A DNA stretch of 64,000 nt from Mobula hypostoma (taxonomy: Eukaryota), in the NCBI RefSeq assembly GCF_963921235.1, contig NC_086108.1:65722001-65786000 (forward strand), written 5' to 3'. The notes under the pieces are model-generated. The model did no database searches and was not told the origin of the DNA. It saw only the letters and a program-made list of their open reading frames with translations. Below are positions 12,432 through 60,869 of the stretch, one piece after another. The position numbers and the translations under genes are program-made. Within the stretch, counting starts at the first letter, position 1. Every line of letters begins with the position of its first letter.

Positions 12432-12588
12432 CAAACACAAGGAAATCTGCAGATGCTAGAAATTCAAGCAACACACACAAAAAATGCTGACCCACATCAG
12501 GACGAAGGGTCTCGGCCTGAAATGTCGACCAACCTCTTCCTATAGATGCTGCCTGGCCTGCTGTGTTCACCAGCATTTTTTGTGTGTG
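12432..12588. mobile_element. Penelope-derived short fold-back element with degenerate hammerhead motif, inserted in CR1
   Basis: Matches the 3' end of the Penelope copy at 18440-18575. 13-bp TSD ATATTTGAATG(T/C)G at 12419-12431 and 12589-12601. Confidence 0.8.
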
Positions 12589-13390
12589 ATATTTGAATGC
12601 GTGCAGTTTACGGAATAAAGTGGATTAACTTGTAGCAGATTTACAGATTGGCAGGTATGATGTTGTAGGCATCACTGAATCATGGATTAAGGAAGATTAT
12701 AGCTGGGAGCTTAATATCCAAGGATAAACATTGTATCGAAAGGATAGGCATGAAGGCAGAGGGGATGGTGTTGCTCTGTTGGATAAAAAATTAAATAAAA
12801 CTATTAGAAAGAGGTAATATAGGGTCAGAAGGCATTGAATCATTGTGGATAGAGCTAAGGGTAAAAAGACACTGAAGCAAGGGTAAAAAGACACTGATGG
12901 GATTTGTATATAGACCCCCAAACAATAGTTAGGATTACAAGGGGACATAGAAAATGCATACCAAAAGGGCAATAGTCATGGGGATTTCAATATGCGGGTA
13001 GATCGGGAAAATCAGGTTGGTGCTGGATTCCAGGAGGAGAAATTTCTGGAGTGCCTATGAGATGGCTTTTTAGAGCGGCTCGTGGTTGAGCCCGCTACGG
13101 GATCAGCTATTCTGGACTGGGTGTTCAGCAATGAACTAAAATTGATTAGAGAGCTTAAGGTAAAAAAAAATCCTTAAGGGCAAGGGATCATAAGATGATT
13201 TAATTCACCCTGAAATTCGAGAAGGAGAAGCTAAAGTCAGATGTCTCTGTACTACAGTAGAGAATGGGAATTGCAGAGACATGAGAGCAGAGTTGGCCAG
13301 AATTGATTGGTAAGGAACACTGGCAGGAATGATAGCAGAGCCGTAATGCCTGGAATTTCTGGAAGCAATTCAGAAGGATCGGGATATATG

Positions 13391-13825
13391 CAGTGGTGCA
13401 GTGCTAGTCGGAGCGCACTGGAGTGCGTCTGTCACATCTTTAAGAAAAAAGCTGAAATAAACAAGTTAATTAATTAGGTGCCGCCCAGGGTGATTTGAGT
13501 ATCTCGGAAACTGCTGATCTCCTGGGATTTTTACGCACAACAGACTCTGGAGTTTACAAAGAATGGTGCTAAAAACAAAAAAAATCCAGCGAGTGGATTT
13601 AGCAAGATGTTTTTGCTCACAGAACAGCCACTCGGTGGATGATTTTTTTGTTTTTGGCACCATTCTTTGTAAACTCCAGAGTCTGTTGTGTGTAAAAATC
13701 CCAGGAGATCAGCAATTTCTGAGATACTCAAATCACCCTGGGCGGCACTTAATTAATTAGCTTGCTTATTTCGGCTTTTTTCTTAAAGATGTGCCGGCCG
13801 CGCTCCGGCTAGCACTACACCAATG
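13391..13825. mobile_element. Fold-back MITE (Tc1/mariner-derived), ~200-bp inverted arms
   Basis: Termini CAGTGGTGCAGTGCTAG ... CTAGCACTACACCAATG in a TA-rich context. The arms are near reverse complements around a ~30-nt spacer. Confidence 0.85.
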
Positions 13826-16609
13826 GATACGTATATATATATATATATATATATCCCAAAGAGGAAGAAGTATCCTAAAGGAAAGATGACACAACTATGG
13901 TTAACTAGAGAAGTCAAAGCCAACAGAAAAGCCAAAGGGAGTGCATATAATAGAGGAAAAATTAGTGGGAAGTTAGCGGATTGGGAAGCTTTTAAAAACC
14001 AACAAAAGGCAACTAAAAAAAAGTCATTAAGCAGGTAAAGATGGAATATGAAAGTAAGCTAGCCCATAATATTAGAGAGACTACCAAAAGTTTCCTCAGA
14101 TACAGAAAGTGTAAAAGAGAGGCGAGAGTGGATATCGAACTGCTGGAAAACGATGCTGAGATGTGGTAATGGGCGAACAACGAAGTGGCGGACAAACTGA
14201 ATAATTATTTTGCATCAATCTTCAACGTGGAAGATACTAGCAGTATGGTGGAAGTCCCAGTTGTCAGGGGTCATGAAGTGTGTGAAGTTAACATTGATAG
14301 AGAGAAGGTTCTTGGGAAACTAAAAGGTCTGAAGGTAGATAAGTCACCTGGACAAAATGGTGTACACCCCAGGGTTCTAAAAGGGGTAGCCGAAGATATT
14401 GTGGCAGCATTAATAATGATCTTTCAGGAATCACTAGATCCTGGAATGATTCTGGAAGTCCAGAAAATTGCAAATTTCACTCCACTCTTCAAGAAGGCCA
14501 GTTAGTCCGATCTCTGTGGTTGGAAAGATGTTGTAGTTGATTATTAAGGATGAAGGCTCAGGGTACTTAGAGGCACATGATAAAATAAGCCATAGTCATC
14601 ATGGTTTCCTCAAGGGAAAATCTTGCCTGACTAATCTGCTGGAATTCTTTGAAGAAATAAGAAGCAGGCTAGACAAAGGAGAGTCGCTTGCTGTTGTGTA
14701 CTTGGATTTTCAGAAGGCCTTTGACAAGGTGCCACATATGAGGCTACTTAACAAGCTACAAGCCCATGGTATTACATGGAACATTCCATGGATAAAGCAG
14801 TGGCTGATTGGCAAGAGGCAAAGAATAGGAGGGAACTGAGCCTTTTCTGGTTGGCTTCCAGTGACTAATGTGTTCCACAGGGATCCGTGTTGGGACCGAT
14901 TCTTTTTACATTATTTGTCAATGATTCGGATGATGGAATTCATGGCTTTTTTTGCAAAGTTTGCAGACGATATAAAGGTAGATGGAGGGTCAGGTAGTCC
15001 TGAGGAAGTAGAGAGGCTCTAGAAGGACCGAGACAGATTAGGAGAATGTACAAAGTGGCAGACGGAATACAGTGTCGGGAAGTGTATAGTCATACACTTT
15101 AGTAGAAGAAATGAAAGTGTTGACTATTTTCTAAATGGAGAGAAAATCCAAGAAACTGAGGTACAAAGGGACTTGGGAGTCCTCGTGCAGGATTCCCTAA
15201 AGGTTAATTTGCAGCTTGAGTCTGTGATGAGGAAGGCAAATGCAATGTTAGCATTCATTTCAAGAGGACTAGAATATTAAAGCAAGGATATAAAGTTGAG
15301 ACCTATAAAACACTGGTGAGGCCTCACTTGGAGTATTATGAGCAGTGTTGAGCCCCTTATCTTAGAAAGTATGTGTGGAAACTGGAGAGGGTTCAAAGGA
15401 GGTTCACAAAAATAATTCCAGGATTGAATGGCTTGTCATATGAAGAGCGTTCGATGGCTCTGGGCCTGTATTCACTAGAATTCAGAGGAACGAGGGGTGA
15501 CCTCAGTGACACCTATTGAATAGTGAAGCACCTTGATAGAGTGGATGCGGGGAGGATGTTTCATATGGTGGGAGAGTCTAAGGCCGGAGGACACAATGTC
15601 AGAATAGAGGGGCACCCTTTCAGAACAGAATGAGGGGGAATTTCTTTAGCCAGAGTGTGGTAAATCTGTGGAATTCTTTGCCACAAGCAGCTGTGGAGGC
15701 CAAGTCTTTATGTTCAGTATACTTAAGGCAGAGGTTGATAGATTCTGCATTGCTCAGGGCATGAAGGTATGTGGGGAGAATTCAGGAGATTGGAGCTGAG
15801 AGAACAACTGGATCAGCCATGAGGAAATGGCGGAGCAGACTTGACGGGCCAAATGGCCTAACTCTGCTCCTATATCTTATGGTCTCATGATCCTTCTTCT
15901 CTTGCTATATCATTGCAACAGCGAATGGCATTGCCTTCGAGTACTTCTGAGCCAAGCTCTAAGCTCGACAGCACATGTTGTGCAACAAACAGGAGGAGCC
16001 CAGGCTTTGGCCTGGTCGCCAGTTTTACACCCAAAGTAGAGTTCATAGGCTTTCTTAATAAGAGAAGTCATGCTCCGTCTTTGAGATTTAAGCGTACACT
16101 CACGACAAATATAACCAAATATATTTGGGTCATGGCTGTTGCAACATTGGCGAGACATTTTGCTATCACAAATACAGCTAAAAATACAATTGCTATATTA
16201 TAATGAGTACATACAATACGCTATGCATGTAGAGCATGCACATCAACTTGATAGTAAACTGATATACATGTAAACACAATGAATCGAACAGTGTGTGTGT
16301 GTGATGCTTTTATAGCCTTTCTAAAACCTGTCCTGCCATGCAGCATCCACCATGCCTAAGCATACACAGGCATGCCTGCACAAGGTAGAAAACTTTTCAG
16401 CTTACATTGTGGGCAACATTTTAATTGAATTGAATTATGAATTGAAATAACAAATATTGGTGATTTCAAAAAAATGGCATGTGATATTGGCATTTCATGA
16501 TCAGCGGCCAAAATCCATCAGATACACCTGAAAGTATTCAAGAAGCAAGATCTTTGTTGTCCAGTGTAATTTCAACCCGTAAAACTGTCAAAGCATTCTG
16601 AGTGTATTA

Positions 16610-18575
16610 ACTCTGAGGATCTCCCATATACTGCCACCAACCTCATAGCTCCCTCACCCCACACCCCCCGTTTCTACCTCCAATGTAAGATCCATAAACC
16701 TGCCTGTCCAGTTGGACCCATTGTTTCTGCTTGTTTCTGCCCAACTGAACTTATATCTGAATACCTCAACTCAGTTTTATCCCCCAGTGGTCCAGTCCCT
16801 TCCTACCTACATCCGTGACACTTCATACGCTCTTAATCTTTTCAATTATTTCAAGTTCCCTGGCCCTGGTCATCTTATTTTCACTATGGACGTCTAGTCC
16901 CTATACAGCTCCACCCCCCACCAGGAAGGCTTCAAAGCTCTCTGTTTCTTTCTAGACACCAGACCCAACCAGTTCCCCTCCACCACCGCTCTCCTCCATC
17001 TGGCAGAACTTGTCCTCACTCTTAATAATTTCTCCAACTTCCTTCAAACACAAGGGGTAGCCATGGGCACTAGCATGGGTTCCAGCTATACCTGTCTCTT
17101 GGTGGGCTATGTGGAACAGTCTACATTCCAAGCCTACACCGGTACCACTCCCCAACTTTTCCTATGCTACATTGGCGACTGTATTGGTGCTGCTTCCTGC
17201 ACTCATGGGGAGCTCGTCAACTTTCTGACACCTCCCTTCCCTTTCTCAATCTCTCTGTCTATATCTCTGGAGACAGCTTATCTACTGATGTCTATTATAA
17301 ACCCATTGATTCTCACAACTACCTGAACAATACCTCTTCCCATCCAGTTACTTGTAAAACACCATCCCCTTCACTCAATTCCTCCATCTCCACCACACCT
17401 GCCCTCAATATGAGGTGTGTCATTTGAGAACAAAGGAGGTGTTTGCCTTCTTCAAAGAAAGAGGCTTCCCTTCCTCCACCATCAATGCTACCCTCAACTG
17501 CATCTCCTCCATTTCACGCATGTCTGCCCTCACTCTATCCTCCTGCCACCCTACCAGGGATAGGGTTCCTCTTGTCCTCATCTACCACCCCACCAGCCTC
17601 TTTATCCAACAGGTAATTCTTTGTAACTTCTGCCATCTCCAGCGGCATCCTGCTGCCATCTCAAGCACACCCTTTCCTCCCTCCATTTCTGCTTTCTGTG
17701 GGGATTGCTCCCCATACGACTCCCTTGTTCGTTCATCCCTCCCCACCGATCTCCTTCCTGGTACTTATCCTTGCAAGTGGAACAAGTGCTACACCTGCCC
17801 CTACACCTCCTCCCTCACTACCATTCAGTGCCCCAAACAGTCCTTCCAGGTGAGGCAACACTTCACCTCTGTCTGTTGGGGTTATCTACTGTATCTGGTG
17901 CTCTTTGTGTGACCTCCTGTTTATCAGTGAGACCTGGTGTAGATTGAGAGATCGCTTCGCTGAGCATCTACGCTCCGTCTGCCAGAAAAAGTGGAATCTC
18001 CCAGTGGCCACACATTTTAATTCCACTTCCCATTCCCATTCCAACATGTCAGTCCATGGCCTCCTCTACCATTGTGGTGAGATCACACTCAGGTTGGAGG
18101 AGCAACACCTTATATTCCATCTGGGTAGCCTCTAGCCTGATGGCATGAACATCGATTTCTCAAACTTCCAGTAATGCCCCCCCTTCACCAGATCCCATTC
18201 CCATTTCCCTCTTTCACCATATCCTCTTATCTCCTCATCACCTCCCTCAGGTGCTCCTCTCCCTTTTCTTTCTTCCATCCTCTCCTATCAGATTCCCCCT
18301 TCTTCAGCCCTGTATCTCTTTCACCAATCAACTTCCCAGCTCTTCACTTCACCCTCCCTCCCCCCAGTTTCACTTATCACCTTGAGGTTCTTCCTTCCCT
18401 CCACCCACGTTCTTACACTGACTCCTCATCTTTTTTTTCCAGTTCTGATGAACGTCTCATCCCGAAATGTAGACCGGACTCTTTTCCACAGATGCTGCCT
18501 GGCCTGCTGAGTTCCTCTGGCATGCTGTGTGTGTTGCTCGGATTTCCAGCATCTGCAGATTTTCTCTTGTTTGTG
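16610..18575 (+). mobile_element. Penelope-like retroelement (RT and GIY-YIG endonuclease), 5'-truncated, degraded
   Basis: PRFYLQCKIHKP, YIRDTSYAL, FTMDV, GVAMGTSMG, TDVYYKPIDSHNYL, FFKERGFP, CKWNKCYTC, ISETWCRLRDRFAEHL, VATHFN. Pyrimidine-rich 3' region ends in the terminal repeat with CTGATGA at 18445-18451. Confidence 0.9.
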
Positions 18576-21500
18576 ATTCTGAGTGTGTGCCCTGGCTCCT
18601 TGATTTGAATGCAAGAGGGCCTAATTATAGTTCAAGGTCACCTCTGGTCAGATATACATTGAAGTAATGTTTGAGATCTGGTCAGGCCTTGTTTAGTACT
18701 TTATCCAGGTTAGAAAGATTTACTTAGAATTACCATTTTTGTGAATTGTTCTTGATCAGTATTTAATATCAGTATCGGTGTTTAATCTTCAAGCAGGCAG
18801 ATAGGGATGCTTAAGATTATTGCACTTGCTTTGCATCAGGTATGGGGAATGAAAGTACTCAGGCTCAGATCAGTTTTGAATGGGCATGGTTCGGTTGAGT
18901 TTTAATTTTGTAAAAGCAAGTATAATGTAAAATAACTCAGTTCAGCTTTAATATGTTCCACCTTGTTGCTTTTAATCCTGGTCTCAGGTCTCCCTTTGAT
19001 CTCCGGATGCCCTTACGAAGCACAAAAAAAAAATGTTGGAAAAACTCAACAGGTTAGTCAGCATCTGCAGAAAGAGAAACAGTTAATGTGTCAGATTGAA
19101 CAGCCTTGTTTGATTTCAATCTTACGAGGAAGCTTCTTTTGTTGACAGATTATCCACATTTCTGGCAAAGAATAGTTAATTTATGGTTCTCTGAGTGAAG
19201 AGTAAAACTGTGCATCATCCTTGTTAATTGGATCATAAAATACAAAGTTTAATTTTCAACCCTTGCACATGTATTTAAAGGAAGGAGGATTAAATTCTAA
19301 CCAACTCAATATATTATAAATCAACCATTAAAATGAATACGTTAGCAGTTTGGAATAGGGAAAATTTAAACATTTACTTAAACTGCCAAACATCAGAAAA
19401 TGCTGGAAGCATTCATCAGCTCAAACAGTATCTGTAGAAAGAGAAATTGAGCTTCAGGTCATCAGCTCATTTCAACTCTGAATCACCCTGTGTGGAACTG
19501 AGGTCTAGAGTGTCAAACCGAGGGGTGACGTACCTTCATCCTTTAAGGGTCATAGAGCACAAATGCAGGTCCCGAGCTTTCCGGATTCTACAACTCACCT
19601 CCAAGGTAAGAGCAAGTTAAAGTGGCCAAATTAACCTATCGAACCTCATATCTTTGGGAAGTGAAATTACATCAGAACACCAGATAAATATTGTGGTATA
19701 AAGTGTAAGTGGGATATGAGAAGAAGTTTTAGATAGTAGCCTACAATCACTTACCTGGTCTCAGCCCTTTAATCTAGCCATGGCAACTCCATTTATGGCA
19801 AGAAACATCTTTTCAAGCACAGGTATGCAGCCAGACAGCTGGTATTACCATCAGTTGCGTGCAATCACGTTGAGCCTGTTAGGGCTTCTTGAGGCTTGGC
19901 TCCTCCCTTTTTCAGAGTGTGACAGGAGGGGTTTAGCACCATCTACACTGGCGGACCCCTCTCTCCAGCATTTGAGAATTGTGGAGCCCATCATCTCCCA
20001 TGTTGTGCCAATGAGCCTTCTGTCAAGCTACAATCACCTCCAAAATGAACTCCCCTACCTGTTGCAATCACAGAGTACCTTCCGTTAAGAGGTGCGGACT
20101 AGCTTTTAAATTTTGTCTGATGAAGGCCACTCAGAAAATTGGTTCCCATGTTGGCATGAAGACAGGCAGAAGCATGATTACTGCTGGTAGACTGCAAAAT
20201 TATTGTTATGAGTCTATTCGAATGGCTTGGAGGCCTGCGCAAGGTCATCTAGGCATATGGGTTACATGAAACATCACCTGTTCTTCAGATCCTGCTGAGC
20301 AAACTGGTCAGAAAGGCAGGGTTAAGAAGAGTCATGAATGTGGAAATGGAAGTAAGGACTTGGAGTATAAAATGGTGCCTTGCAAGAATGAAAATATTTA
20401 ATTCCTCAGCTGCCTTTCGTAAGGAATCTGCACCTTCTAGAAAAAGCCATTTTTAGACTGCCACATTCGAACTTAGAATGTCAACCCTGCCCACATTTTC
20501 CAACCCAATTTTGATTGGTCCTGGATCTCTTCAACAGACTTGAGTTAATTTGTGTTGCGGAAAATGAACATCTAATGACATGCATTCAGAACCTGAAGAT
20601 TGATTCAAGTTGACCAGCTGTGAATAAGAGGAGGTTCTAAGAAATTTAATTAAGGCATTCAAAATTATAAATAATACATAATAAAGTATTAAAAATGAAG
20701 TGTTACAATTGGTCAGCAAGCTGATAAGATAACAGAAATCTAAGATCATCACTGAAAAAATGATAGGAGACCAATATGACACTTTCTCGTGAGGACTAGA
20801 TATAGGCGCACATAACAGGTAAGTGTGGTATCCAGCATGGACTTGGAAATCCAAAATATTACAGATTGATAAACAATACCTCCCCTTTTAGTCACACATC
20901 TTACAACTTGTTGACCTTAATGATAATTTTTATCCTTTTGGATGTTAACTATTGCTCTTATTTCTTATGAACAGCCAGTGTTCATAATGAAGAATAGCTC
21001 CACCAGAGCTATTGAGAGTGGCAGAGAAATGGGTTGTGCTTGCAGTGGTAATTCACTATTAATTCACAAATTGTCCTCATGATCTAATGGCATTTCTCCT
21101 GCCTCAGTCCTGGATAATAGAAACATTATTTTTGTCAGATTCTCAACACTTTCATCTCCCTCTGCTACCATTAACTATTCAGACATCTTCTGGACCAGCA
21201 AGTGATCATTTCTGACTTGGTCACTTTGCACTGTCAGTGCTTCAGTCACTTTGTCCACCAACCATTACAAACCTCACTGCTTTGTTCTTTGGTAAGCTCA
21301 AACCTCTTTCCAAATGCTGTTGCCCATCACTAGCCTTTCCCAGTTCTGATGAAAGCTCATGGACCTAAATCATAAACTCTTCTTTCCTCTTCACAGGTGC
21401 TGCAAGCCCTGCTGAGAGAGGCTACGTTTTCTGTTGTTAGTGGAGATGTACAGTGCTTTACTTTTGGAAACTTGGTGATGTGCCAGCCCTGGACAAGTGC

Positions 21501-24548: not shown

Positions 24549-24740
24549 CAGGGGTGGCCAACCTTTTACATTCCAGGCGTCAATTTTTTCACGCACAAGT
24601 TCAGATGCGATTTTTTCAGTACCAGTTCTATATTAACATATTTTTACCAGAATTGAATGGGGGTACAAGAGTTGTATGGCGCATCTGAACTCGTGAGTGA
24701 AAAAATTGACGCAGGGAATGTAAAAGGTTGGCCACCCCTG
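24549..24740. mobile_element. hAT (Charlie-like) MITE, 192 bp
   Basis: ~60-bp TIRs begin CAGGGGTGGCCAACCTTTTACATTCC. Perfect 8-bp TSD CTTTAGAC at 24541-24548 and 24741-24748. Confidence 0.92.
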
Positions 24741-24804
24741 CTTTAGACACCTTCATTCCCAATCCGTTCAATTCATGAAAATTATCGTCTTCCTGCAATT
24801 TGCC

Positions 24805-25020
24805 GGAGAAACTCAGCAGGCCAGGCAACATCTGTGGAAAGGAATAAACAGGTGATGTTTCGGGCCGAGATGCTTCATTAGGTCCTGAAGAAGGGTCTCG
24901 GTCCAAAACGTCGACTGTTTACTCTTTTCCATTGGTGCTGCCTGGCCTGCTGAATTCCTCCTGCATTTTGTGTGTGTTACTTTGGATTTCCAGCATCTAC
25001 AGATTTTCTTGTGTTTTTGC
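24805..25020. mobile_element. Penelope-derived fold-back element, degenerate hammerhead motifs
   Basis: Inverted arms centred at ~24880: 'gtttcgggccgagatgcttcattag-gtc-ctgaagaagggtctcggtccaaaacgtcgactg'. Confidence 0.8.
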
Positions 25021-26259: not shown

Positions 26260-28005
26260 TCAAAGTTCAAAGTAAATTTATTATCGAAGTAAATATATGT
26301 GACCATATACACCCTGAGATTCATTTTCTTGTGGGCATTCACAGTAAATACAAAGAAACACAATAGAACCACAGAAAGACTGTCCCAACAGGACAAACAA
26401 CTATTGTGCAAAAGTCAACAAACTGTGCAAATCCAAAAGAAGTAATAATAATAATCATAAACAATTAATATCGAGAACATGAGACGAAGAGTCCTTCAAA
26501 GTGATTCCACAGGTCATGGGAACAGTTTAGTAATGAGGTGAGTGAAGTTGTCCCCTCTGGTTCAAGAGCCTGATGGCTGAGGGGTAGTAACTGTTCCCGA
26601 ACCTGGTGATGTGGGACCTGAGGCTCCTGTACCTTCTTCCAGATGGCAGCAGTGAGAAAGGAGCATAGCCTGAATGGTGGGGATCCTTGATGATGGATGC
26701 TGGTTTCCTGTGACAGTGCTCCATGTAGCTGTGCTCAATGGCGGGGAGGGCTTTACCCATGAAGTATCCACTACCTTTTGTCGGCTTTTCTATTCAAGGT
26801 TATTGGTGTTTCCATACCAGGCTGTGATGCAACCAGTCAGTGTGCAGTCCACCGTACATCTATAGAAGTTTGTCAAAGTTTCAGATGACATGCCGAACCT
26901 TCGCAAACTTCTAAGAAAGCAGAGGTGCTGTCGTATTTACTTTGTAATGGCACTTACATGCTGGATCCAGGACAGAATCCTCTGAAAGCCAGTGGATGTA
27001 GTGTACCTGGACTTTCAGAAAGCCTTTGATAAAGTTCCACATAGGAGATTAGTGGGCAAAATTAGGGCACATGGTATTGGGGGCAGAGTACTGACATGGA
27101 TTGAAAATTGGCTGGCTGACAGAAAACAAAGAGTAGTGATTAATGGCTCCCTTTCGGAATGGCAGGCGGTGACCAGTGGGGTACCGCAAGGTTCAGTGCT
27201 GGGACCGCAGCTGTTTACAATATATATTGATGATTTAGGTGAGGGAATTAAAAGTAACATTAACAAATTTGCCAATGACACAAAGCTGGGTGGCAGTGTG
27301 AAATGTGAGGACCCAGGTCAGAGCCTCTGAAATTATAACACTGAGGAATTTAGTTTTGGACCCTCTCCATCTCTGATCCCTCGATGAGGGTTGACTCACG
27401 AACCTTTGGTTTCCTCTACCTGAAGTCAATAATCAGCTCCCTGGTCCTTGCTGACATTGAGCGAGAAGTTTTTGTTGTACAACCATTCAGCCAAATTTTT
27501 AGACTCCGACATACTGATTCACACCACACTTGATTTGGCCAACGACAGTGGTGTCAACAGCAAACTTATTATGGCATTGGAGCTGTGCTTCGCCTCATAG
27601 TCATGAGTATAAATCAAGTAGAGCGGGGTGCTAAGCACACAACCTTGTGGTGCACTTGTGCTAATTGTAATTGTGGAGAAGATGTTGCCAATCTGAGTGA
27701 AGGATTCAAGGGTCCAGTTGCTCAAGAAGGTATTCAAGCCTGGGACTTGAAAATTATTGATTAGGTTCGAGGGAATGATAGTATTAAATGCTGAGCTATA
27801 GTCAATGAAGACCATCCTGATATATGCATCTTCACTGTCCAGATGTCCCAGGGTTGAATGAAGAGCCAATGAAATGGCATCTGAAGTTGATATGGCAAGA
27901 GCTGATATGTTTCATCACCGGCCCCTCAAAGCACTTCATCACAATGGATGTAAGTGGTACTGGATGATATTCACTGAGGCAGGTTACCATGTTCTTGGGC
28001 ATCAC
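26260..28005 (-). mobile_element. Rex1-type LINE (RT to 3' end), interrupted by a CR1 fragment
   Basis: YIRMVFIDYSSAFNTIIP, SAPQGCVLS and IIKDPHHSGYAPFSLLPSGRRYRS; tail near 26260-26285. Confidence 0.85.
26988..27308 (+). mobile_element. Internal CR1 RT fragment nested in the Rex1 copy
   Basis: ORF 26992-27330 [15 protein letters not shown]...[19 protein letters not shown]; no 3' tail. Confidence 0.9.
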
Positions 28006-28520
28006 TGAATTGTAGCTGAAAGAAGATTATAGCTGGGAGAATAATATCAAAGGAATACAAATTGTATCAAAAGGCCAGGTAGGTAAGATAAGGGTGTGGG
28101 GTGGTTCTGTTGGTAAAAAATGAAATCAAATCATTAGGAAGAAGCGACATAGGATTGGAAAGTGTAGAATCATTGTGGGTAGAGCTAAGAAGCTGCAAGG
28201 GGAAAAAGAATGATGGGAGTTATATACTGACCTCCAAACAGCAGATGTGGGTGTGGTCTACAAATTGCATTGGGAGACAGAAAATGCACATGAAAATGGC
28301 AATGTTACAATAGTCATGGGGGATTTCAATATGCAGGTATACTGGGAAAATCAGGTTGGTGCTGGATCCCAAGGAAGGGAATTTCTAGAATGCCGATGAG
28401 GTGCCTTTTTAGAGCAGCTCATGGCTGAGCCCACTGGGGGATCAGCTATTCTGGATTGGGTGTTATGTAATGACCCAGAATTGATCAGAGAGCTTAAGGT
28501 AAAGGAACCTTAAGAGGATA
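28005..28520 (+). mobile_element. CR1 ORF2 endonuclease fragment
   Basis: ESVESLWVELR and VMGDFNMQV; similar to 12690-13170. Confidence 0.8.
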
Positions 28521-28524
28521 GTGA

Positions 28525-28862
28525 CCATTTCGTCCCTCTTCCCGCTGGGAGAAGGCTCAGGAGCTTGGAGACTTGTACGGCCAGATTTGGGAACAGCTTC
28601 TTTCCAACTGTGATAAGACTGCTGAACGGATCCTGACCCGGATCTGGGCCGTACCCTCCAAATATCTGGACCTGCCTCTCGGTTTTTTTGCACGACCTTA
28701 CTTTCCATTTTTCTATTTTCTATGTATGATTTATAATTTAAATTTTTAATATTTACTATCGATTTGTAATCCAGGGAGCGGGAAGCGCAGAATCAAATAT
28801 CGCTGTGATGATTGTATGTTCTAGTATCAATTGTTTGGTGACAATAAAGTATAAAGTATAAG
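28525..28862 (+). mobile_element. Rex1-type LINE 3' end
   Basis: 'ccctcttcccgctgggagaagg...gggaacagcttctttccaactgtgataagactgctgaac' and an (AAAGTAT)n tail. Confidence 0.7.
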
Positions 28863-29039
28863 TACTCTTCCAATCAGCCTGGCTCACTAATGGTACTCTA
28901 AATGACATAGGTTCAAAGTAAGTTGAGCAACCTGTATATATATCGCTGAGAATTTTTGTGGGCATACTCAATAAATCTATAGAATAATAACCATATTGAA
29001 TACTGAGGTAAAGCATCTATTAGATCTCAGGGCTAAACT

Positions 29040-29792
29040 CATAGTCATAGTATAGTCATAGTCATACTTTATTGATCCCGAGGGAAATTGGTTTTCGTTA
29101 CGGTTGCACCATAAATAATTAAATAGTAATATGTAAATTATGCCAGGAAATAAGTCCAGGACCAGCCTATTGGCTCAGGGTGTCTGACCCTCCAAGGGAG
29201 GAGCTGTGAAGTTTGATGGCCACAGGCAGGAATGACTTCCTATGACGCTCAGTGTTGCATCTCGGTGGAATGAGTCTCTGGCTGAATGTACTCCTGTGCC
29301 CAACCAATCCATTATGTAGTGGATGGGAGACATTGTCCAAGATGGCATGCAACTTGGACAGCATCCTCTTTTCAGACACCACCGTCAGAGAGTCCAGTTC
29401 CATTCCCACAACATCACTGGCCTTACGAATGAGTTTGTTGATTCTGTTGGTGTCTGCTACCCTCAGCCTGCTGCTGTAGCACACAACAGCAAACATGATT
29501 GCACTGGCCACCACAGACTCGTAGAACATCCTCAGCATCATCCGACAGATGTTAAAGGACCTCAGTCTCCTCAGGAAATAGAGACAGCTCTGACCCTGCT
29601 TGTAGACAGCCTCAGTGTTCTTTGACCAGTCCAGTTTATTGTCAATACGTATCCCCAGGTATTTGTAATCAACACCATGTCCACAATGACCCCCTGGATG
29701 GAAACAGGGGTCAGCGGTACCTTAGCCCTCCTCAGGTCTACCACCAGCTCCTTAGTCTTTTTCACATTAAGCTGCAGATAATTCTGCTCACA
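29040..29792 (-). mobile_element. Rex1-type LINE 3' part (same family as 1-985)
   Basis: WCEQNYLQLNVKKTKELVVD and MFYESVVASAIMFAVVC...HRKSFLPVAIKL; (CATAGT)n tail at ~29040-29066. Confidence 0.85.
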
Positions 29793-31470: not shown

Positions 31471-31829
31471 TCTTATTAGGCACCAATATAATTGAAGCTT
31501 CCCTGAAGTAGGAGGGTACCTCAGACTGCCAAAGCAAGTGGTTAGAGATTAAAGTAAAAACTAAATATAAGTGCTATATCTGCACTTACCTTTTCAGTCC
31601 TGGTTGGTGACTCCATTTGGGCGAATGGACTTGCATCAGCAATTCTGGTCATGGCTGACATAACAGTGAAGGGCTTGGCAGAAAGTGTACCCAACCCCAT
31701 TGAGTCCAGAGGAAGAATGGGATCAGATGCAGCATTCGTCTTACAGCTTGTCTCTAGCATCTGCTTTTTACCCCATGTGTACAGAAACCACGAACACTGC
31801 CTCACCTGCCACACTTAGCTACTGGGTCT

Positions 31830-43735: not shown

Positions 43736-43844
<109 letters not shown>

Positions 43845-44470
43845 TATTTCAAGGAGAAGAGAGTATAAAAGCAAGGACACAATACTGGGCCTTTATAAGA
43901 CACTCGTCAGGCAATACTTGGAATATTATCAACACTTTCGGGCCCCATATCTCAGAGAGGATGTGTGTGTTGTCCTTGGAGAGAGTCTAGAGGAGGTTCA
44001 CATGGATGATTCCGGGAATGAAGGGATTAACCTATGAGGAACTTTTGGCAGCTTTGGGCCTGTACTCACTGGAATTTAGAAATATGCTGGGGGATCTCAT
44101 TGAAACCTACCAAATGTTAAAAGGACTAGTTAGGGTGGATGTGGAGAGCATGTTTCCTATGGTGGGGGTATCCAGAACTAAAGGGCACAGCCTCAAAATT
44201 GAGGAGCGATACTTTAGAACAGAGGTAAGGAGGATTTTTTTTTTAGCCAGAGAGTAGTGAATCTGTGGAACGTTCTGCCACGGACTACGGTGGAGGCCAA
44301 GACAAAGATGGAATTTGATCATTCCCTGATCAGTCAGGGCATCAAAGGAATGGCGAGAAGGCAGGTGTATGGGGTTGAGTGGGATCCAGGATCAACCATG
44401 ATGGAATGGCGGAGCAGACTCGTTGGGATGAATGACCTAATTCTGCTCCTAAATCTTATGGTTTTATGGG
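43845..44470 (+). mobile_element. CR1 3' fragment
   Basis: LYKTLVRQYLEY, LGLYSLEFR, CR1 3' UTR. Confidence 0.85.
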
Positions 44471-45239
44471 GCAGAATTTTTAAAGTCCATTTAAGAGAAC
44501 TTTTTGAGCCAATATGTAGATGGCTATGCTGGACCTAATCTTAGGGAATGAAGCAGGACAGGTAGTTAAAGTGTTAATGTATGTGTGTGAGCATTTTGTA
44601 GATGTAACTCATAGCTCTGCAAATTTTAAGGTAGCTATGGAAAGGGAAATAGAAAATCTAGAAAATAAGGTCCTGAATTAGAGGAAGACTGATGTCAATA
44701 TAATTAAACAGGATGCAGCAAACATACACTGAGGACAGCTACTTGCATATAAACCACAACTGAGAAGAAAGTGCCCTTGAAACTGAAACAGTGAAAGCTC
44801 AGGGCCAATTATTCCTGTTAGGGTGAAAGATAAGTAAGGCAAGCCCAGAGAATACTCTATGTCAGGATTTCAAAGGCTCGATAAGGGAAAAATAAAGCAT
44901 ATGGATAATATAGAGAACTGAAAACAGGTAAAGGCCGTACAGAAGCATAAAACATAGAGGTGGATACCTCCAAAAAAGGAATTAGGAGGGCAAGGAGGGG
45001 CTACAAAATATCACTGCAGATGAGATTAAAGAAAAGTCCAAGGCATTTTATGTTTATTAAAGGATTAATTATGGAGAGACTAGAGCCTGTTCGGGAGCAA
45101 ATGGGCAAACTATACATTGAGTCAGAGGATGTGGTGAATATCTTGACTTAATTTAATACCGCAGTGGGAGGGAAGTGACTGATAAAACTTCTGAGAGGAA
45201 TGACAATAGGAGATCATGGATATTCAGAAGGGCTTTATC

Positions 45240-45350
45240 TGGTAATTGGTTTATTATTGTTGAATTATTGTCAGTAACTGGTTTATTATTGTTGGATTAT
45301 TGTCGGTAATTGGTTATTATTGTTGGATTATTGTCGGTAACTGGTTTATT
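45240..45350. repeat. Tandem repeat, ~33-bp unit x ~3.3
   Basis: Unit ~GGTAA(T/C)TGGTTTATTATTGTTG(A/G)ATTATTGTC(A/G); probably an expanded LINE tail. Confidence 0.8.
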
Positions 45351-45351
45351 A

Positions 45352-45655
45352 AGGGTGCCATGGTAGTGTGGCAGTTAGCACGATGCTATTACAGCTCAGG
45401 ACATTCTGCACTTTGAGTTCAGTTCCGGTGCTGTCTGTAAGGAGCTTGCACGTTCTCCCTGTTAACCATGTGGGTTTCCTCCAGGTGCTCCGGTTTCCTT
45501 CCACAGTCCAAAAACGTACTGGTTAGTAGGTTAATTTGTCATTGTAAATTGACCTGTGATTAGCCTAGTGTTAAATAGGTAGGTTGCTGGCAGGTGCACC
45601 TTGTTGGGCCAGAAGGGCCCGTTCTAAGCTGTATCACTAAATAAAAATAAAAGAA
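45352..45655 (+). mobile_element. tRNA-derived SINE (HE1/V-SINE-like)
   Basis: A-box-like TGGTAGTGTGG, B-box-like GAGTTCAGTTCC, core 'tgggtttcctccaggtgctccggtttcc', A-rich tail. Confidence 0.8.
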
Positions 45656-45659
45656 ATAA

Positions 45660-46275
45660 TGTACCAAGATAGAGTTAAGAGCTTTTGTTTGTATGCTATC
45701 CAGATTCATTGTTCCATGCATAACTACACTGAAATATTACAAAAGAGAAAAGAAAACAAGTTTGCAGAACACATTATAGAGTTATATATAATGTGCTGTG
45801 TAGGTAGACAAATAAATTATAAGGGCTATGATATGGTGGATTGAGAGATCGAGAGCTTATCTTTATCATATTAGGGGTCATTTCGATGGTCTTATAACAG
45901 CAGATCAAAGCTGTGCTTGATCTTGTGGTACAAGTTCTCAAGCTTTTGTGTCTTCCACCTAGTTGGAGGGGGAGAAAAGTGAATGACCGGGGCAGAAGGT
46001 TTTCTTGATTTTGTGAGGCAGTGGGAAGTACAGACAGAGTCAATGGAGGGGGGATTGATTGTCATGATAGATTGACTTGTATTCACAACTCTCTGCAATT
46101 TCTTGTGGTCTTGGGCAGAGCAGTTGCCATACCAAGCTGTGATACATCTATGGTGCATCTGTAAAATTTGGCAAGCATCATTAGAAATCAGGTAAATTTA
46201 CCCAGCAGTCTGGGGAAGTAGAAGCACTGATGTATTTTGTTGGCCATAGTGTTCACGTAATTGGACCAGGTCAAA
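45660..46275 (-). mobile_element. Rex1-type LINE 3' part, degraded
   Basis: CITAWYGNCSAQDHKKLQRVVNT. Confidence 0.75.
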
Positions 46276-46279
46276 TCTG

Positions 46280-46952
46280 GTGGTGGGTCCGCTTCTTTTC
46301 ACATCATATATCAATGATTTGATGATGGAATTGATGGCTTTGTGACCAAGTTTGCAGATAACATCAAGATAGCTGGAGGGGCAGGTAGTGTTGAGCAGGC
46401 AGGGAGCCTACATAAGCACTTAGACAGGTTGGGGGAATAGACAAAGAAGTGCCCAATGGAGTATAATGTAGAGAAATGTATGGTCTTGCACTTTGGTAGA
46501 AGGAATAAAGGTATAAACTATTTTCTAAATGGGAAGAAAATTCAAAAATCCAAAATGCAATGGGACTTAGGAGACCTCTTGCAGGATTTCTTAAAGATTA
46601 ACTTGCAGGTTGAGTCAGTGATAAGGAGGGAAAATGCAATGTCAGCATTCATTCAAGAGGACTAGAATATAAAAGCAAAGATGCTTTATGAGGCATTGGT
46701 CAGACTGCACTTGGAGTATCGTGAGGAATTTTTAGGCCCCTTATGTAAGAAAATATGTGCTGGCATTGGAGAAGGTCTTGAGGAAGTTCACAAGAATGTA
46801 TCTGGGAATTACAGGGTTAATACATGAGGAGTGTATAATGACTCTGGGCCTGTACTCGCAGGAGTTTAGATGAATGAAAGGTGATTTTACTGAATCCTGT
46901 CGACCACTGAAAGGTCTAGATAGAGTGGATGTGGAGGGGATGTTTCCTATAG
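46280..46952 (+). mobile_element. CR1 RT fragment
   Basis: KFADNIKI, MEYNVEKCMVLHFGRRN. Confidence 0.8.
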
Positions 46953-48934
46953 TGCTCATCATTCTCTTCCCAGCTGCTTAACTTATCACTTACCAGCCTC
47001 TGTCTCACCCACTTTTGTCCTGCTATGTACTGGCAAACTTTTCAGTTCTCTCTTGGTATTGATGCAGGGTCTTGAGGGCTGAAATGTGGATTTCTACCTT
47101 TCACCTCCACAGAGGCTGCTCAATCTGCTGAGATTCTTACGTCTTTACCTTCCAACATCTACCATCTGCTGTCTTATTTGTCTTTGTTGAGGCTAAGGAT
47201 ACTGCAGGAGGTAGGGGCTTAGTAGCTCAGTTGACAATTTAACTTTTACAGTGCAAATGTGATGGTCTGAAATATCGCATATTTGTAGCACTTGTTCTTG
47301 ACATTTTTTTTTGCCATTTAGAGTATTTATAACCCACAATGGCACTTAGAGGGGGGATGGAGATTGTGGCCCATAAGAAACAGCCAACTGTAAAGCAAAC
47401 CAAGTAAATTTACTTAGTGCCTAGCAGTAGAAACAAACTATACCAACTTCCCTCAAAGGTGCAGTGCGATTTCTACAGGAAAAGGTGAATGTGGGAATTA
47501 GTTACTTGTAAATCACGTGCACAAAATCGACTACAATCATTTCCATCTGTGAAATTTCTGCTTAAGTCATTATTCAATTTATTAAATCCCCATCAATCTG
47601 GCTGATTGTGGAGGTGTCACTCTATTTTCTCCATCTTAATCAGTCCTTTGGGATGTAGCCTCATATGTTTGCACTCTGGTTTTGTGGGTTCTGAGGCAAC
47701 TGCTGAGGTCAATGAGGGAACCACAGACTGTTCTACAGATGGCGCATGCTAGGGCAGGCGGTTTGGTCATTTGTGAAGTGGTGTGCTGTTTATATCATTT
47801 ATAGAGGATGTGGTCCTGGTGCACGAATTCTAGATTCTCATTGCCGTCCTGAATGCTCCTTCTCCAACTTGAGCTGTCATGTGCTGCGGATGTTGCTAGG
47901 GGTCAGACAGAATGTACTAGGTCAGAGGGATTTTGAGCATATGCTTGAAACTTTCTTCTCCTGCACATGACCGGGCTCAGAACAGAGTGTCTATTTCAGG
48001 AGTGTAATATCAAGCATATCCTCACAGAGCTGATGGAGTGCAATTTCAGCCTTGGTGCTGGAGATACTAGGTCACTTTTATTTGGTTGCATCACAGTAAC
48101 AATTTGTGACAGTCAGAGTAAACTTTCTTGCTAAGATCGGCAGGATGTCTTCAAATGATGTCACAGGAGTCCAGTTTCCTGCACATTCCCCTACTGGAGA
48201 GCAGCCAATAAAAAGCAGGAGTATTGCTGACTACACAGCATTCATAATCAAATCACGCATAAGTGTTAATGTGATTCTTGCTTCTTGCTGATGTAATCAG
48301 CATGTGGAATAATTACTATAACCCCCTTTTTAAATCCATTTTTGGTGCCAGTTCCTTGGAGAACTCTATTGTTAATTTTTTAGCCAGACTGGTTGGAAAC
48401 TCCGCGTACTGTAAGTAAATCCTTAGAGTGCGACTCCTAGCACCCACAGTATTATAACTTGCATTATAACTTATAATAAATAATAAAATGCTGCAGATGC
48501 TGAAAATCTGGAAAAGAAATCAAAAATTCTGAAAATAGTCATAAGGACAGGCCACATCTGAGAAGAAGAAAAAAACATTTTGGGTATTTTGATAATGATC
48601 TTTCATCAGTATGTAAATATTGGCACGATAAACTGAAGAAGCAGATTACTTCATCATCATAAGATCTTAATTATCATTTTGTTGATTTCAGTGGAGCATA
48701 AATGCAACTCTACAATGGGCCAAAGTTCTTCTGTAACAGGTTATAACTCAACAATGAAGGAGAAAATTACCTCTCCCCCCTTCCTCTGCCAGTCTGAGGA
48801 ATGAAAGACCTAGCATTGCTGTTCTGGAAATACTAGTTGCTCTCCAATCTCTACAGAAAAAAAAATCTTATCACTTTAACTTTCACCAAGCTAGAACAGA
48901 GATAAAATGTTTCTTCTTAGCTTTCATTTTAATA

Positions 48935-49811
48935 CAGTGGATTCCAGCTAATTAGACCATCGGTTAATTGGGGCAGCCGCTTATTTGAGACCACACTTAA
49001 AGAACAAAAACTGATCGAGAAAGTAGTCAGGATTCCTTTCGAATATTTGGAGAACGATGCAGCTAATTTGGACAGGTGACTCAATCTTTAACTCGCGTCA
49101 GACTATGGTGAGAAGGCAGGTGTATGGGGTTGAGTGGGATCCGGGATCAGCCTAGATGGAATGGTGGAGCAGACGCGATGGGCTGAATAGCCTAATTCCG
49201 CTCATATGTATTATAGTCTTATGGTCTTATGGTCAGATACATGTACTTGTGTGGCCATTACACTGCACATTGCTTACAGCGAACAGTTTTTAAGTAGTGT
49301 CAGTTGCATTTTTTGTGTTCATTAGGCAGCAATTTTTGTTACTGATAGTTGGCGAGAAATAACTGTAAGACAATTCAGAAATACTTTGCTTACTGCAATT
49401 TCAAATACTAAGGCTTGGAGATGCCAGAGACAGCCAGGAGTGGAAATGAAACAATTTCACTACTTGAAGATTTGGTGGATGCATTGTCAAAAGGGTTGCA
49501 CGAAGGCAGCTTATTATCTGTTCTAGGTGTTTGGACTGAGTTTGTTCAGTTACAGTTAATCAAAAGAACATGGCAGTGTACACTAGATGAATTCCTCAGT
49601 CAATTACTATTAGGAAGTAATACACAGTTTTATAGTACTATAGTAGTATTTGTAGCATTGTAATTTGTTCTGTATTTCATTTAAATATAACACACAATTT
49701 ATTACTCAGTTAAACAGTAATTTGTCTTTTTATGCAGTTTTAACTATTTCCATGAAAATTTTGGCTAATTTGTCCTGTTTCAGATGTGTCCCAATTAACC
49801 AGAATCCACTG
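48935..49811. mobile_element. Non-autonomous Tc1/mariner (Tigger/pogo-like) element with a nested CR1 3' tail at ~49103-49231
   Basis: TA|CAGTGGATTC...GAATCCACTG|TA termini. The nested CR1 tail is flanked by GTCAGA duplicates. Confidence 0.8.
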
Positions 49812-56425: not shown

Positions 56426-56454
56426 AGAGCGGAACACTACAGCAATGTGGCCAG

Positions 56455-56535: not shown

Positions 56536-59500
56536 GGCAATTTTATCGAGGGAAAGCGGAAAAATATTGCATGGATATGCATAGGAATAACTTTGGAACG
56601 CAAGGCATAACAACCTTATATAGATTTTTTTTTGTGGCACTAAAAGAGATTGCAGAATAGCAAAATACTCTTGCCTGCCTACCTGAATTGTAATTTATAT
56701 ATGTTTTCTTTGTGGTAATTATCCCATGTTTTCATTAAACTGGAAACACCTACTCAGCCTTTAATTAATTTTAATGACGAATTCAAAGCGTCCACGGGAC
56801 TGTTCTTTCCCCTTTCTATATCTCTCTCTCCGTGATGGAACCAAACAAAGCCGCTGTTAAGGAAGGACATTGGGTAAAATAGTTTCCCATGTTTCCTCGC
56901 CATTTGGAAAATATAGACATTTCCTAGACAGGCATTTTACCATGAGCGGTGTTGAAGGCCGGTATATTTTAAGACTTAAGAGAAATGATTCCCTATCAGA
57001 GATGTGATTACACTGCGATAGGCTAGGACAAATTTAACATTAAGACCAGGAGTGAAAATACTTTATCAAAACCTTAAAGATCACTACAAAGGCAGATTGC
57101 TTGATTCTGTTTTAATTACCCGGAATGGCTTTTTGGGGTTAAAATCGTTTATTTCAAAAATGGCAGTTTAAAAAAAATAATCGGAATGAAGCATTCTTAA
57201 ATGTATTCTGTCAATTATTTTTATTGTACACTTGATTACTGAACACAATTAAGCATGCGATATCAATTAATTATCAAAGCGTAAATTATATAGAATTGAA
57301 AGATAAATTTCACATTAGAAACGTAAAGCTTTGAATATAGTGCTGAGATGAAATAATTTTCTGAAAGTTGTCAAAGCTGTTTAAGTTAAAGGCGGCCACC
57401 ATTAGCTTCTAATAATTGGATTTGATGGACGCCTTCATCCAATAATAGGTTAATGGCAAGTCGAGTTTGTAACACAAGTAATCTTTAAAAAAAAGGTTGG
57501 ATCCGATCTGAACTGGTAAGATTACCTTGATTTATAGAATATTTTTAATGTGTAATTAAGTTGCTACACCAATAATTTATATGGTTGCTAAGGCCAACAC
57601 GGCAATTTTAACGATGCCCCAATGAAAAGTAACCCGTTTTTTTGCTGCACTATTATGAGCACAGCCAGCATGAACTTGTAAGTATTTTTTAATCTGTAGG
57701 ACACGTCGTGCCCATACATTTCTTTATCCAATTTCGAGTCCATTTATTTACTTGTTATAAATATTAATGAGTATATGGTAACTTGGATCTTCTAACAAAT
57801 TAATGTCCTAACTATTTATTGGAGATTGAAACCTTAGTTTAAAAGAGCCAGGTTCAGCGGCCTGTCTGCTAACATCTGGCATCAAGATCCTAAAAGTAAA
57901 TGAAACCGCGAACACTTTACCCCCCCCCCCACCCTCATCCCTCCACTCCCAAGCCAGAGATCCGCGTCGCCATATCGCGCTCCATGACTGATGTAGCCTA
58001 CATAGGAAATTTCATGTTGGTTTATCTGTACATTCATATTTTCTGCGTGGGCAACTGCAGCAAAATACAAAATAAAATAGATAGCTGTAAATACAGCTAC
58101 AGCTTAGCGGGGCTTGTTCCAAAAAGTAATGAATAACTATGAGGTGTAACTGTCTTGAATATCTGGCAGGGTTACCTTATCGCGAATAGCTGTATTTGTA
58201 ATACCGATGATGCCCATAAGAACTGGGACTAGAGTTATAAATACCATTGAAAACGGGCTTTATTAGGACTGAGAAGGTTTATGTTGGTCCTGTTCTTATT
58301 TTTTGCTCTCTGATAAATTGTTGAACTGATTAACTTTGAGAAATATTTAAGAGTCTGACACAAAAGTGACCAATACTTATGAAAAATAAAATTGCCTATC
58401 ATTAAGACATGAAAACATTGCGTTGCTATCAAATGCTGTAAATTACCATTTTTGCAGAATAACTAAATATTTTCAATCAATTTACTGAAAGAGTGTAAAG
58501 TCTATTGTGTTTTCCATGAAGTAAGTTGAAATTAATCGTGAAGATCAATGATTGTGTCTCTAGAATTTGTATTATATTGACAATGGCGTAGAGGAGAATT
58601 TCTTATTATTTGTATTTATAATTCTCCATTCCACTTGTCGGATTCAGTAATCTAATTGGAAGCCAACCCTTTGCACGGGCAGTTACAGTCATTTCGATAC
58701 AGAATCATTCTGCTGGCTTTTGGGAGATTGCACAGTAAAAATGTTTCACGCATTCCAAGAAACGGATTGGCTCTACGCTCAGCGTTTGCTCTCTGTGCTA
58801 GATAGGAATATAGATAAAGTATTTAGTTGGTTGTATCTTCTAAAAATGTGTTATTAATTTCGCGGTATACGGCACGAACAAACTGACATTATTACCCCAC
58901 AGAAAGAACAGTTGTTCTACACTCCAGGAGAAAACGGAGATCGACATTGTAATTCTCTGTCTAAACAATGGGATGGATCCCTCAAAGTAGCTTAGCCGTC
59001 TTTAAGAAATAAAGGCGTTTATAAAGTGTTTCTTCCACCACGAACCCGACCCTAGAGGAGCTTGTATTGAATAAGTCCAATCATTTTAAACCGCTGTTTG
59101 ACTAATATTGGTTTTTCGCGATGTGGGTATCTTTGCAAAGGTTAGTAATGATGACCCATGTCTAATTGTTCTTGGTAAGATGATGGTAGCCGCCTTCTGA
59201 AGCCACTGCAGTTCTTTCAGTTTAACGTACCTTCACGAAGCTGTTGTGGAGATCCAGGAGACAAGACCATAAAGCTAAAAGATATAGGAGCACAATTAGG
59301 CCGTTCGGCCCATCGAGTCTATGGCTACAGCTGCTCAGACAAATTGGCTGGGGAATAGCAATCCAGGTTAGAATTAGGATTTGCAGTCCAGAAAAGAATA
59401 TTTCCAGGTTAGAATGGAAGTCTGCTGGTGTTCCTTGTAGCTGCTACCATTGCTCCTTCTGGTAGAGGACATCGAAGTTTAGGGTGAAGGTGTAGGAGTA

Positions 59501-60700
59501 GCTAAGTGAATAATTGTGGTATATTTTGGAAATGCACATTTCTCTGCCAGCATGGTCAGTTAAGTATTTAAATTGCTTTGGATTGTAAACAAATAGGTGG
59601 CAGTAACTTGAGTTGTGTTGGGATTCCTCAGTGTTTGTTGAAGTGCACTCATTCAGGAAAGTGGATTTCCTACGTAGAGCTGGTGCTCCATCACACTCCT
59701 GACTTAAGCCTTATAGATACTGGAAATGCATTGGGGTGTGAGGAGATGAATCACTCACTCCAATATACCCGCCTCGAACCACCTCTTGTTGCTAAAGCCT
59801 TTATGTAGTTCAGTTTTACAGTCATGGAGTAATTCAGCTTGGAAATAGACCCTTTAGCCTTTAGCCCAACTTGCCCATGCTGACTATAGTGCTCAATAAG
59901 CTAGTCCCATTTGCCCTCCTCTGGAACTGCTTGGCCAGAGATGTGGCTAGTTTTGAAGCACCAGCCATCAATGCCATAGACTGGATATCATCTAATTCCC
60001 TCTGTTATGTTCAATCCATCACTCTCAAACTTTATCTATAACCAATGAAAATCTTTGGAAGAAACTGCAATGGGTCTTCCATTCACTGAACATGGTTGCA
60101 AATTCTTCATCCTTTTCTTCAGCACACACATGCTGGGCTCTGCAGTAGCTTGGATTGTCAATGCTCTTGGATCCATCTCCTCTTCCCTTTAGCTGATTCA
60201 TTTTCCATCACAGTTCATGACTGATGTGGCAGCTTTATCTCATTCATTAATTGTGTGAATGCTTGGTTCTGTCTATTGCATGGTGCGTTTACTCTTTATC
60301 ATAGAAATAGTTCTGCATTGTTATCTCATAAGATTGACTCTCCATTTTTACAAAACCCTGATGCTGCTCCAAGTATGTTCTTTCACCCTCCTCATTGAAC
60401 CAGATGGGTTTTGGCTTGCTAGAAATGGCAATGTGAAGGCTATTCCAGGCCATCAGGTGGTCTACATTTTTGCTGCTGCAGATAGTCAACACCTCCTTAA
60501 GGTGCTAGGAAATCAGTTGTGAATGGTTCCCAATTACCATATTAGTTCATACAACACAATGGAGTTAGTGTAATGCTGAGACTTGTGCTGCAATGGAATG
60601 AATATCTTTGCCACCTCACAGGACTGTGGCCCATTCTATTTGTATTACTTTCAAAGCTGAACTTTAACATCTCAGTCATAATCACAAGTAATTTTATTTG

Positions 60701-60869
60701 AAGAGGTGCAGTCGACGTTTCAGGCCGAGACCCTTCATCCTGATGAAGGGTCTCGGCCTGAAACGTTGACTGCACCTCTTCCTAGAGATGCTGCCTGGCC
60801 TGCTGCGTTCACCAGCAACTTTTATGTGTGTTGCTTGAATTTCCAGCATCTGCAGAATTCCTGTTGTTT
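60701..60869. mobile_element. Young Penelope-derived fold-back element with hammerhead core
   Basis: 40-bp inverted arms at 60700-60739 and 60742-60781; CTGATGA at 60740-60746, then GAAACGTT. TSD TAATTTTATTTG at 60689-60700 and 60870-60881. Confidence 0.88.

Follow-up and report, generated by a model that had tools for sequence, protein, structure and literature searches.

The repeat-rich vertebrate DNA of Mobula hypostoma examined here (contig NC_086108.1, positions 65,722,001 to 65,786,000; this whole 64-kb stretch is called the window) carries several short fold-back copies of the end of a Penelope-like element (PLE). They raise the question of whether such copies constitute a mobile family of their own or are by-products of PLE insertion, and why they fold back at almost the same point. 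In the initial annotation, they were proposed to be either ribozyme-bearing, retrozyme-like non-autonomous elements or stereotyped 5'-inverted truncations. We consider, with a probability of about 0.8, that the inserts are minimal, dead-on-arrival insertions of a Neptune-type PLE, each made afresh at insertion; this figure applies to the identity and the afresh origin of the inserts and not to the step that joined their arms. All copy counts, junctions, and family tests below are those of this 64-kb window.

When the window was scanned with a profile of the PLE end, 20 matches were obtained, and six inserts were found to be two-armed. They are head-to-head, 157–224 bp in length, and built solely from the ribozyme-bearing 3' end of the PLE. 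Positions within this end are numbered with C3 of the CUGANGA core as +1, and each copy is called by a position in the window:

12432-12588, no strand assigned: two-armed insert; left arm antisense, from the tail end (+132) to about +80, then an internal deletion (about +13 to +80, some 70 nt) and a 14-nt core remnant (+12 to -3); right arm +3 to about +95.
24796-25019, no strand assigned: two-armed insert of an older subfamily (24805); left arm about +87 to -1, right arm -3 to +131 with tail.
40250-40444, no strand assigned: decayed two-armed insert; both arms without tail, junction near the core and unreadable to the base.
41211-41429, no strand assigned: youngest two-armed insert; left arm +132 to -4 with tail, right arm +1 to +86.
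41690-41905, no strand assigned: old two-armed insert of a third subfamily (41700); left arm from the tail end to the core, right arm from about +13 to +17.
60701-60869, no strand assigned: two-armed insert; left arm +42 to +3, right arm -2 to +131 with tail.

All of the short solo copies that had been named at first (at least five: 12432, 24805, 40250, 41211, and 60701) are thus present and two-armed. The layout is a target-site duplication (TSD), an inverted 5'-truncated end, and a direct 5'-truncated end, with an optional tail on one side. Indeed, one arm bears the tail (+129 to +133) in five of the six copies, 40250 having none on either side, and the other arm stops at +83 to +102, namely 30–45 nt short of the tail end, also in five of the six.

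TSDs of 11–13 bp flank 12432, 41211, and 60701, three clear TSDs having been claimed in the initial annotation, and an exact repeat reached 11 bp at none of 600 random site pairs (the longest was 10, in two pairs):

12419-12431, plus strand: left TSD of 12432 (right copy 12589-12601; exact over 11 bp, or over 13 bp if one mismatch is allowed).
41198-41210, plus strand: left TSD of 41211 (right copy 41430-41442; 13 exact bp).

The TSD of 60701, at 60689 and 60870, has 13 exact bp, the last of which may belong to the arm. No TSD is detectable at the three old two-armed copies: the best repeats at 24805 and 40250 were within chance, as was an uncertain 8/9 match at 41700. The same search at 33160, 21340, 47050, 48490, and 19020 also gave repeats within chance. 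The insert 12432 sits inside a long interspersed nuclear element (LINE), and a paralogous LINE near 37418 holds its target once, namely a paralogous empty site. For 41211, organisms B and E contribute one contig each in which the left flank is matched as far as 41210, the final TSD base, and the sequence beyond it departs from the reference for 328 and 454 unmatched bases, respectively, as expected of an empty site. Beside this young insertion, one contig of run X1 has a second letter at position 41175, the same as in B and E, which is possibly a heterozygous site.

Short, hairpin-shaped, high-copy sequences could also be taken for miniature inverted-repeat transposable elements (MITEs) of a DNA transposon, a reading to which we give virtually no credence. 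A DNA MITE has symmetric terminal inverted repeats and a TSD of fixed length, but the arms here are unequal, so that the two ends differ in sequence, which refutes it, and the TSDs of 11–13 bp are of the same class as the 11-bp TSD of the long PLE copy described below. A genuine MITE-like hairpin only 55 bp away (24549-24740) served as a control and has symmetric ends, the terminal inverted repeats being perfect over 17 bp, and an exact TSD of 8 bp, as is typical of hAT-type elements. Target-primed retrotransposition, which the initial annotation preferred to a DNA MITE, is supported.

Do the inserts, then, descend from one another? At least three groups can be told apart among the copies, with about 55–75% identity from one group to another; 41211, 60701, and 12432 make up a separate, younger subfamily (87–95% identity, clade support of 97/98). 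The two arms are identical at 85/86 positions (99%) in 41211 and at 39/40 (98%) in 60701, with private variants common to both arms, and each of these inserts was therefore made from one source at its insertion; in the older 24805, the arms are identical at 67/87. A self-propagating non-autonomous family, either retrozyme-like or SINE-like (short interspersed nuclear element), transcribed from fold-back masters and mobilized by the PLE, should have ends, a junction, and private variants in common across copies. All four readable junctions differ, however, no two copies have the same arm lengths, and at least three subfamilies are involved. Fold-back status needs four changes on the tree, and a single origin was recovered in 0% of 200 bootstrap trees. 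Furthermore, none of the six inserts is a head-to-tail tandem with two or more same-strand ribozymes, and the transcript of 41211 is predicted to fold as one hairpin (-183.5 kcal/mol, z of -27.8), which would bury the ribozyme; for helix II, a pair probability of 0.0 is predicted in 41211 and 60701 on either strand. Such a family is thus improbable, even though a young clade unites three of the copies, one contig each of runs X1 and X9 has the end unit joined head-to-tail, and non-autonomous PLE derivatives and PLE-derived retrozymes are known to exist. The proposal of a ribozyme-bearing, retrozyme-like family is accordingly unsupported, and that of stereotyped 5'-inverted truncations is supported. 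DNA pattern scans gave no match in metagenome, viral, and genome contigs; a shorter pattern hit 10 loci, all of which matched the pattern only and were dropped as chance.

The presumable parent is represented in the window by a long copy:

16606-18575, plus strand: ordinary 5'-truncated PLE copy of about 2 kb, with a broken reverse transcriptase (RT), a CX4CxxC linker motif, and GIY-YIG-like frames.
18440-18477, plus strand: decayed minimal type I hammerhead of this copy (C3 at 18445).

This copy is flanked by its own 11-bp TSD (16595/18576), and no inverted arm was found at its 5' end. The short arms match its end, which makes them the 3' end of an element with RT and GIY-YIG domains. The claim that they consist of the sequence ending this very copy holds for homology but not for descent (76–79% identity, longer matches). 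Among 622 candidates, 15 are relatives of its RT-region frame; those with a name come from rays, skate, and sharks, and three carry PF00078 (RVT_1). The endonuclease-region frame has three relatives among 29 candidates, and the best two, from rays with 72–77% identity, match GIY-YIG at E-values of 5e-4 and 2e-3, below Pfam's cut-off. When the broken frames of the window themselves were searched in Pfam, four of the five had no match, and the fifth had one irrelevant match (E of 0.53). The C-X4-C-xx-C motif lies in the frame 17358-17912, ahead of the endonuclease, and fits Neptune or Nematis; a CX2-5CxxC motif between RT and endonuclease defines Neptune and is common to Nematis in PMC8557442. 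Judging from these frames and motifs, the parent of the short inserts is a putative endonuclease-positive PLE with a Neptune-type motif. As a separate matter, the ray and skate proteins P0005, P0006, and P0012, named as isoforms of host genes, hold PLE RT sequence (matches in the 61–71% range), and annotation read-through or splicing into PLE copies is the likely cause.

In the profile scan, four copies (18445, 21340, 33160, and 47050) are one-armed and run on upstream of the ribozyme, and four scraps (19020, 19390, 48490, and 54820) are too decayed to class. Five fainter fold-back copies had been suspected, of which 41740 is two-armed (the insert 41700), but the other four are one-armed: 21340 and 47040 pass the core, and decay prevents 19020 and 48490 from being classed. 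The copy at 33160-33390 had been absent from that list:

21320-21447, plus strand: one-armed old PLE end, not a fold-back, running upstream of the core.
33160-33390, plus strand: ordinary one-armed PLE 3' fragment, continuing upstream through the acceptor-like site.
46960-47180, plus strand: one-armed old PLE end, not a fold-back, with pyrimidine-rich upstream sequence.
19017-19097, minus strand: one-armed decayed PLE end, unclassed (profile scan).
48487-48610, minus strand: one-armed decayed PLE end, unclassed (profile scan).

In terms of the ribozyme, all canonical pairs of a minimal type I hammerhead are possible in the young arm: helix I would pair -4 to -1 with +29 to +32, helix II would span +9 to +20, and a palindromic 4-mer occupies +24 to +27, with predicted self-cleavage after +28 (site +28/29). 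This assignment is based on the motif and the pairing because an Rfam search gave no hammerhead among 10 matches at E<=1 and the folding signal was above that of shuffles in none of five segments; the best Rfam matches of the hairpins were mir families, below the gathering score.

The junction is readable to the base in four inserts, where -1 is joined to -3 in 24805 (1-nt overlap), -4 to +1 in 41211 (2 nt), +3 to -2 in 60701 (2 nt), and -3 to +3 in 12432 (3 nt, 12501-12503). In all four, therefore, the axis lies within -4 to +3 of the hammerhead core with overlaps of 1–3 nt; in the two old copies 40250 and 41700, one arm reaches the core and its partner comes to within about 17 nt. By chance, a further five junctions would fall in one 22-nt interval with a probability of 1e-4 to 1e-6 for spans of 140–360 nt, and the axis bias is real within the window. 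The initial annotation had set the axis at the CTGANGA box in 24805, 41211, and 60701, which is confirmed by hairpin loops of 1, 2, and 2 nt, respectively (at 24883 in 24805 and 41343-41344 in 41211), and extends to 12432. It had also linked the inversion to ribozyme structure. The positional coincidence stands, but catalysis is not implicated, the axis preceding the cleavage site by about 30 nt; a splice-acceptor-like motif also lies at the axis. Indeed, cleavage is ruled out as defining the axis, with none of the six junctions centred at +28/29 despite a perfect 6-bp palindrome there, and so is palindromicity alone, with nine other near-palindromes along the arm used in none of the six copies. 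Since the axis is off the cleavage site, the template would be uncleaved RNA.

The axis coincides with the outer end of helix I and also with an acceptor-like pyrimidine-CAG site; a pyrimidine tract followed by AG at -4/-3 is seen in three of four ordinary copies, including the long copy, where it precedes the hammerhead at 18440-18477. A branch-point-like CTGAC is also observed in 18414-18442, about 25 nt before this tract, as would fit an intron that ends right at the ribozyme. In Drosophila virilis, the Penelope intron ends at the 5' end of helix I (PMC4209133), and transcripts of that element are mostly spliced.

Copies elsewhere were surveyed by mapping contigs at 80% likeness from four of 24 listed runs onto a 360-bp reference, which comprises one arm with its left flank and ends at -5. 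Breakpoints upstream of -5 are hence invisible, contig assembly presumably breaks at palindromes, and X1 is under-counted. The runs gave 59,431, 26,056, 18,185, and 3,876 mapped contigs, and the PLE end family is abundant in three organisms. Among the 15 joints listed of 41, 12 are skips across the diverged middle, and each of the other three has one side at -3 or -4, with a strand change to +38 (3 contigs in X1 and 5 in X15), a return to +31, and a return to +117. Among the 12 joints with letters between their sides that were listed of 71, seven have a side at -1 to -4, and six lead from -1 to -4 back to +32 to +35. These joints fit a breakpoint hot spot at -1 to -4, but -4 adjoins the end of the reference. 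The AG at -4/-3 after a pyrimidine tract recurs in the loose-end consensus of other copies (24 listed of 693 loose ends). Separately, X1 and X9 have contigs with two same-strand ribozyme cores about 35–40 nt apart and, in one contig per run, a head-to-tail joint of an end unit of about 135 nt; these tandems are possible true retrozyme-like derivatives elsewhere in the genome.

How might the arms have been joined? In our reading, the GIY-YIG nuclease would make a staggered cut at the target, and reverse transcription would start at two internal sites bounding the tail on uncleaved RNA. Having passed the ribozyme, synthesis of complementary DNA (cDNA) would tend, only partially, to stop at the outer end of helix I or the acceptor-like site, and the cDNA ends would be joined by microhomology within the near-palindromes at the axis. 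We tentatively favour, at slightly less than even odds, that two cDNAs, one primed from each nick, anneal head-to-head, and rank this over a snap-back, in which one cDNA stops at -4 to +3, folds on the local near-palindrome, primes itself, and is then captured by the second target end. The snap-back is nonetheless quite possible: it accounts at no extra cost for the arms ending no more than about 7 nt apart, agrees with the private variants common to both arms (99% and 98% identity), and is approached by the listed joint from -4 to +38 in X1 and X15, near a fold-back through the mirror image of helix I. The loops of 1–2 nt at three junctions are tight for a priming hairpin, although some 2-nt DNA loops are known; five of the six short arms stop at +83 to +102, near a defined site, and the nine other near-palindromes, including the perfect 6-mer at the cleavage site, were used in none of six. 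Self-priming has been proposed for PLE junction palindromes in PMC3846280.

Alternatively, the template itself might start or change at the axis, by a transcription start or a spliced exon boundary, and cDNA would run off regardless of ribozyme folding. The AG after the pyrimidine tract in ordinary copies and in the loose-end consensus, as well as the intron end and the prevalent splicing in D. virilis, speak for it, but no upstream-exon bases occur at any of the four readable junctions and splicing of this element is putative only, which makes this unlikely. Later trimming of longer head-to-head insertions, by deletion of unstable palindromes, is very improbable: one arm of 12432 has indeed been shortened by about 70 nt, but trimming predicts asymmetric, scattered centres with spacers and not loops of 1–2 nt at one site in near-identical young arms. 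We also regard as doubtful, though worth stating, that the minimal hammerhead acts in integration as a structural scaffold and not as a cutter, a dimeric hammerhead pairing two RNA segments. Each RNA would be reverse transcribed from one target nick, both would stall where helix I forms with the partner, and the cDNAs would be joined head-to-head or jump to the partner's +33 to +36. If true, this would explain inverted pseudo-long terminal repeats (pLTRs), the dispensability of cleavage in vitro, and the joints from -1 to -4 back to +32 to +35. The dimer pairs are all canonical, but its predicted energy is -10.9 kcal/mol versus -29.7 kcal/mol for an alternative cofold, and -4 adjoins the edge of the mapped reference.

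Several points weigh against our overall reading. Only six two-armed elements are available, two of them with junctions unreadable to the base, and the short arm of 60701 ends at +42 and not at the tail-less site. Any stop is partial, since four of the 10 copies that can be classified continue through the site uninverted, and the pause of cDNA synthesis is itself inferred. No joint of the window's own type is among the 15 of 41 listed, and no ordinary copy of the young subfamily lies in the window. The right flank of 41211 is outside the mapped reference, so that the empty sites in B and E are inferred, and the tree is weak: one of 14 inner branches is starred, and starred branches alone do not exclude one origin.

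The window also contains other repeats. A long hairpin element at 13394-13821 has 164-nt arms (93%) that extend further out, ends beside a TA run, and has a partial relative at 61626-61764; its probable identity is that of a non-autonomous DNA transposon. One or more LINE families, whose 3' tails are short and repeated, have many copies at 5000-6300, 12150-15890, 27000-31500, 37250-40240, 43850-49240, and 59260-59320; a 312-amino-acid stop-free RT-like frame is on the minus strand at 5350-6285, and a 277-amino-acid stop-free frame reading like the protease/RT region of long terminal repeat (LTR)-type elements is on the plus strand at 62509-63339.

Regardless of how the arms were joined, such hairpins look like MITEs and microRNA precursors, and genome annotation should mask them as ends of PLEs. 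With 59,431 contigs in one run on a 360-bp reference, the family could yield a large census of junctions. For an existing in vitro system, a sharp prediction is that the breakpoint is fixed at helix I and not at the cleavage site. The inserts also bear on the formation of inverted pLTRs and on the role of a weak ribozyme, which are stated open questions in the literature of the field. Twin-priming 5' inversions of L1 have an inverted 5' part, an intact TSD, and microhomology at the junction, as do the present inserts; the two parts in L1 are successive stretches of one RNA, whereas the present arms copy the same stretch.

Closer likenesses are found among PLEs. As described in PMC4209133, minimal type I hammerheads of PLE pLTRs have the same core boxes, the extra base after position 9, a short helix I, and a palindromic 4-mer in place of helix III; paired hammerhead motifs on opposite strands are about 100–700 bp apart in Schistosoma in the same source, whereas the two cores abut here. 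Non-LTR retrozymes, as described in PMC7229834 and bioRxiv 10.64898/2026.07.22.740005, likewise originate from a PLE end, carry a type I hammerhead, lack coding capacity, are 150–400 nt in scale, and have TSDs of more than 4 bp; they are, however, head-to-tail tandems processed to circles, and ours are single head-to-head inserts whose RNA is predicted to be unable to form the ribozyme. According to PMC11167929, both strands are cut and extended by a PLE protein, which initiates at two internal sites bounding the tail and has unprocessed, uncleaved RNA as its main substrate.

The nearest counterpart is the complex insertion of endonuclease-positive PLEs, described in PMC8557442 and PMC3846280 as an inverted 5'-truncated copy, a pLTR, and an optional tail of 30–40 bp; these sources also describe an inverted pLTR with a tail, a TSD of 8–10 bp (in Adineta vaga), and junctions with overlap and palindromes. 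The inserts resemble it in the head-to-head inverted copy (six of six), the one-sided tail (five of six), the short variable TSD (three of six), the palindromic overlapping junction, and the occurrence of solo pLTRs. They differ in that the direct copy is also cut, to the last 40–135 nt, in TSDs of 11–13 bp, and, relative to the descriptions available to us, in a junction that recurs at the 5' edge of the ribozyme. Such a fixed axis was not found in the literature searched, although supplements, figures, Repbase, Dfam, and the reviews of 2002–2006 may already show it. In kind, therefore, these are already known, namely minimal inverted-end PLE insertions, and their recurrent breakpoint is a modest but testable mechanistic lead.

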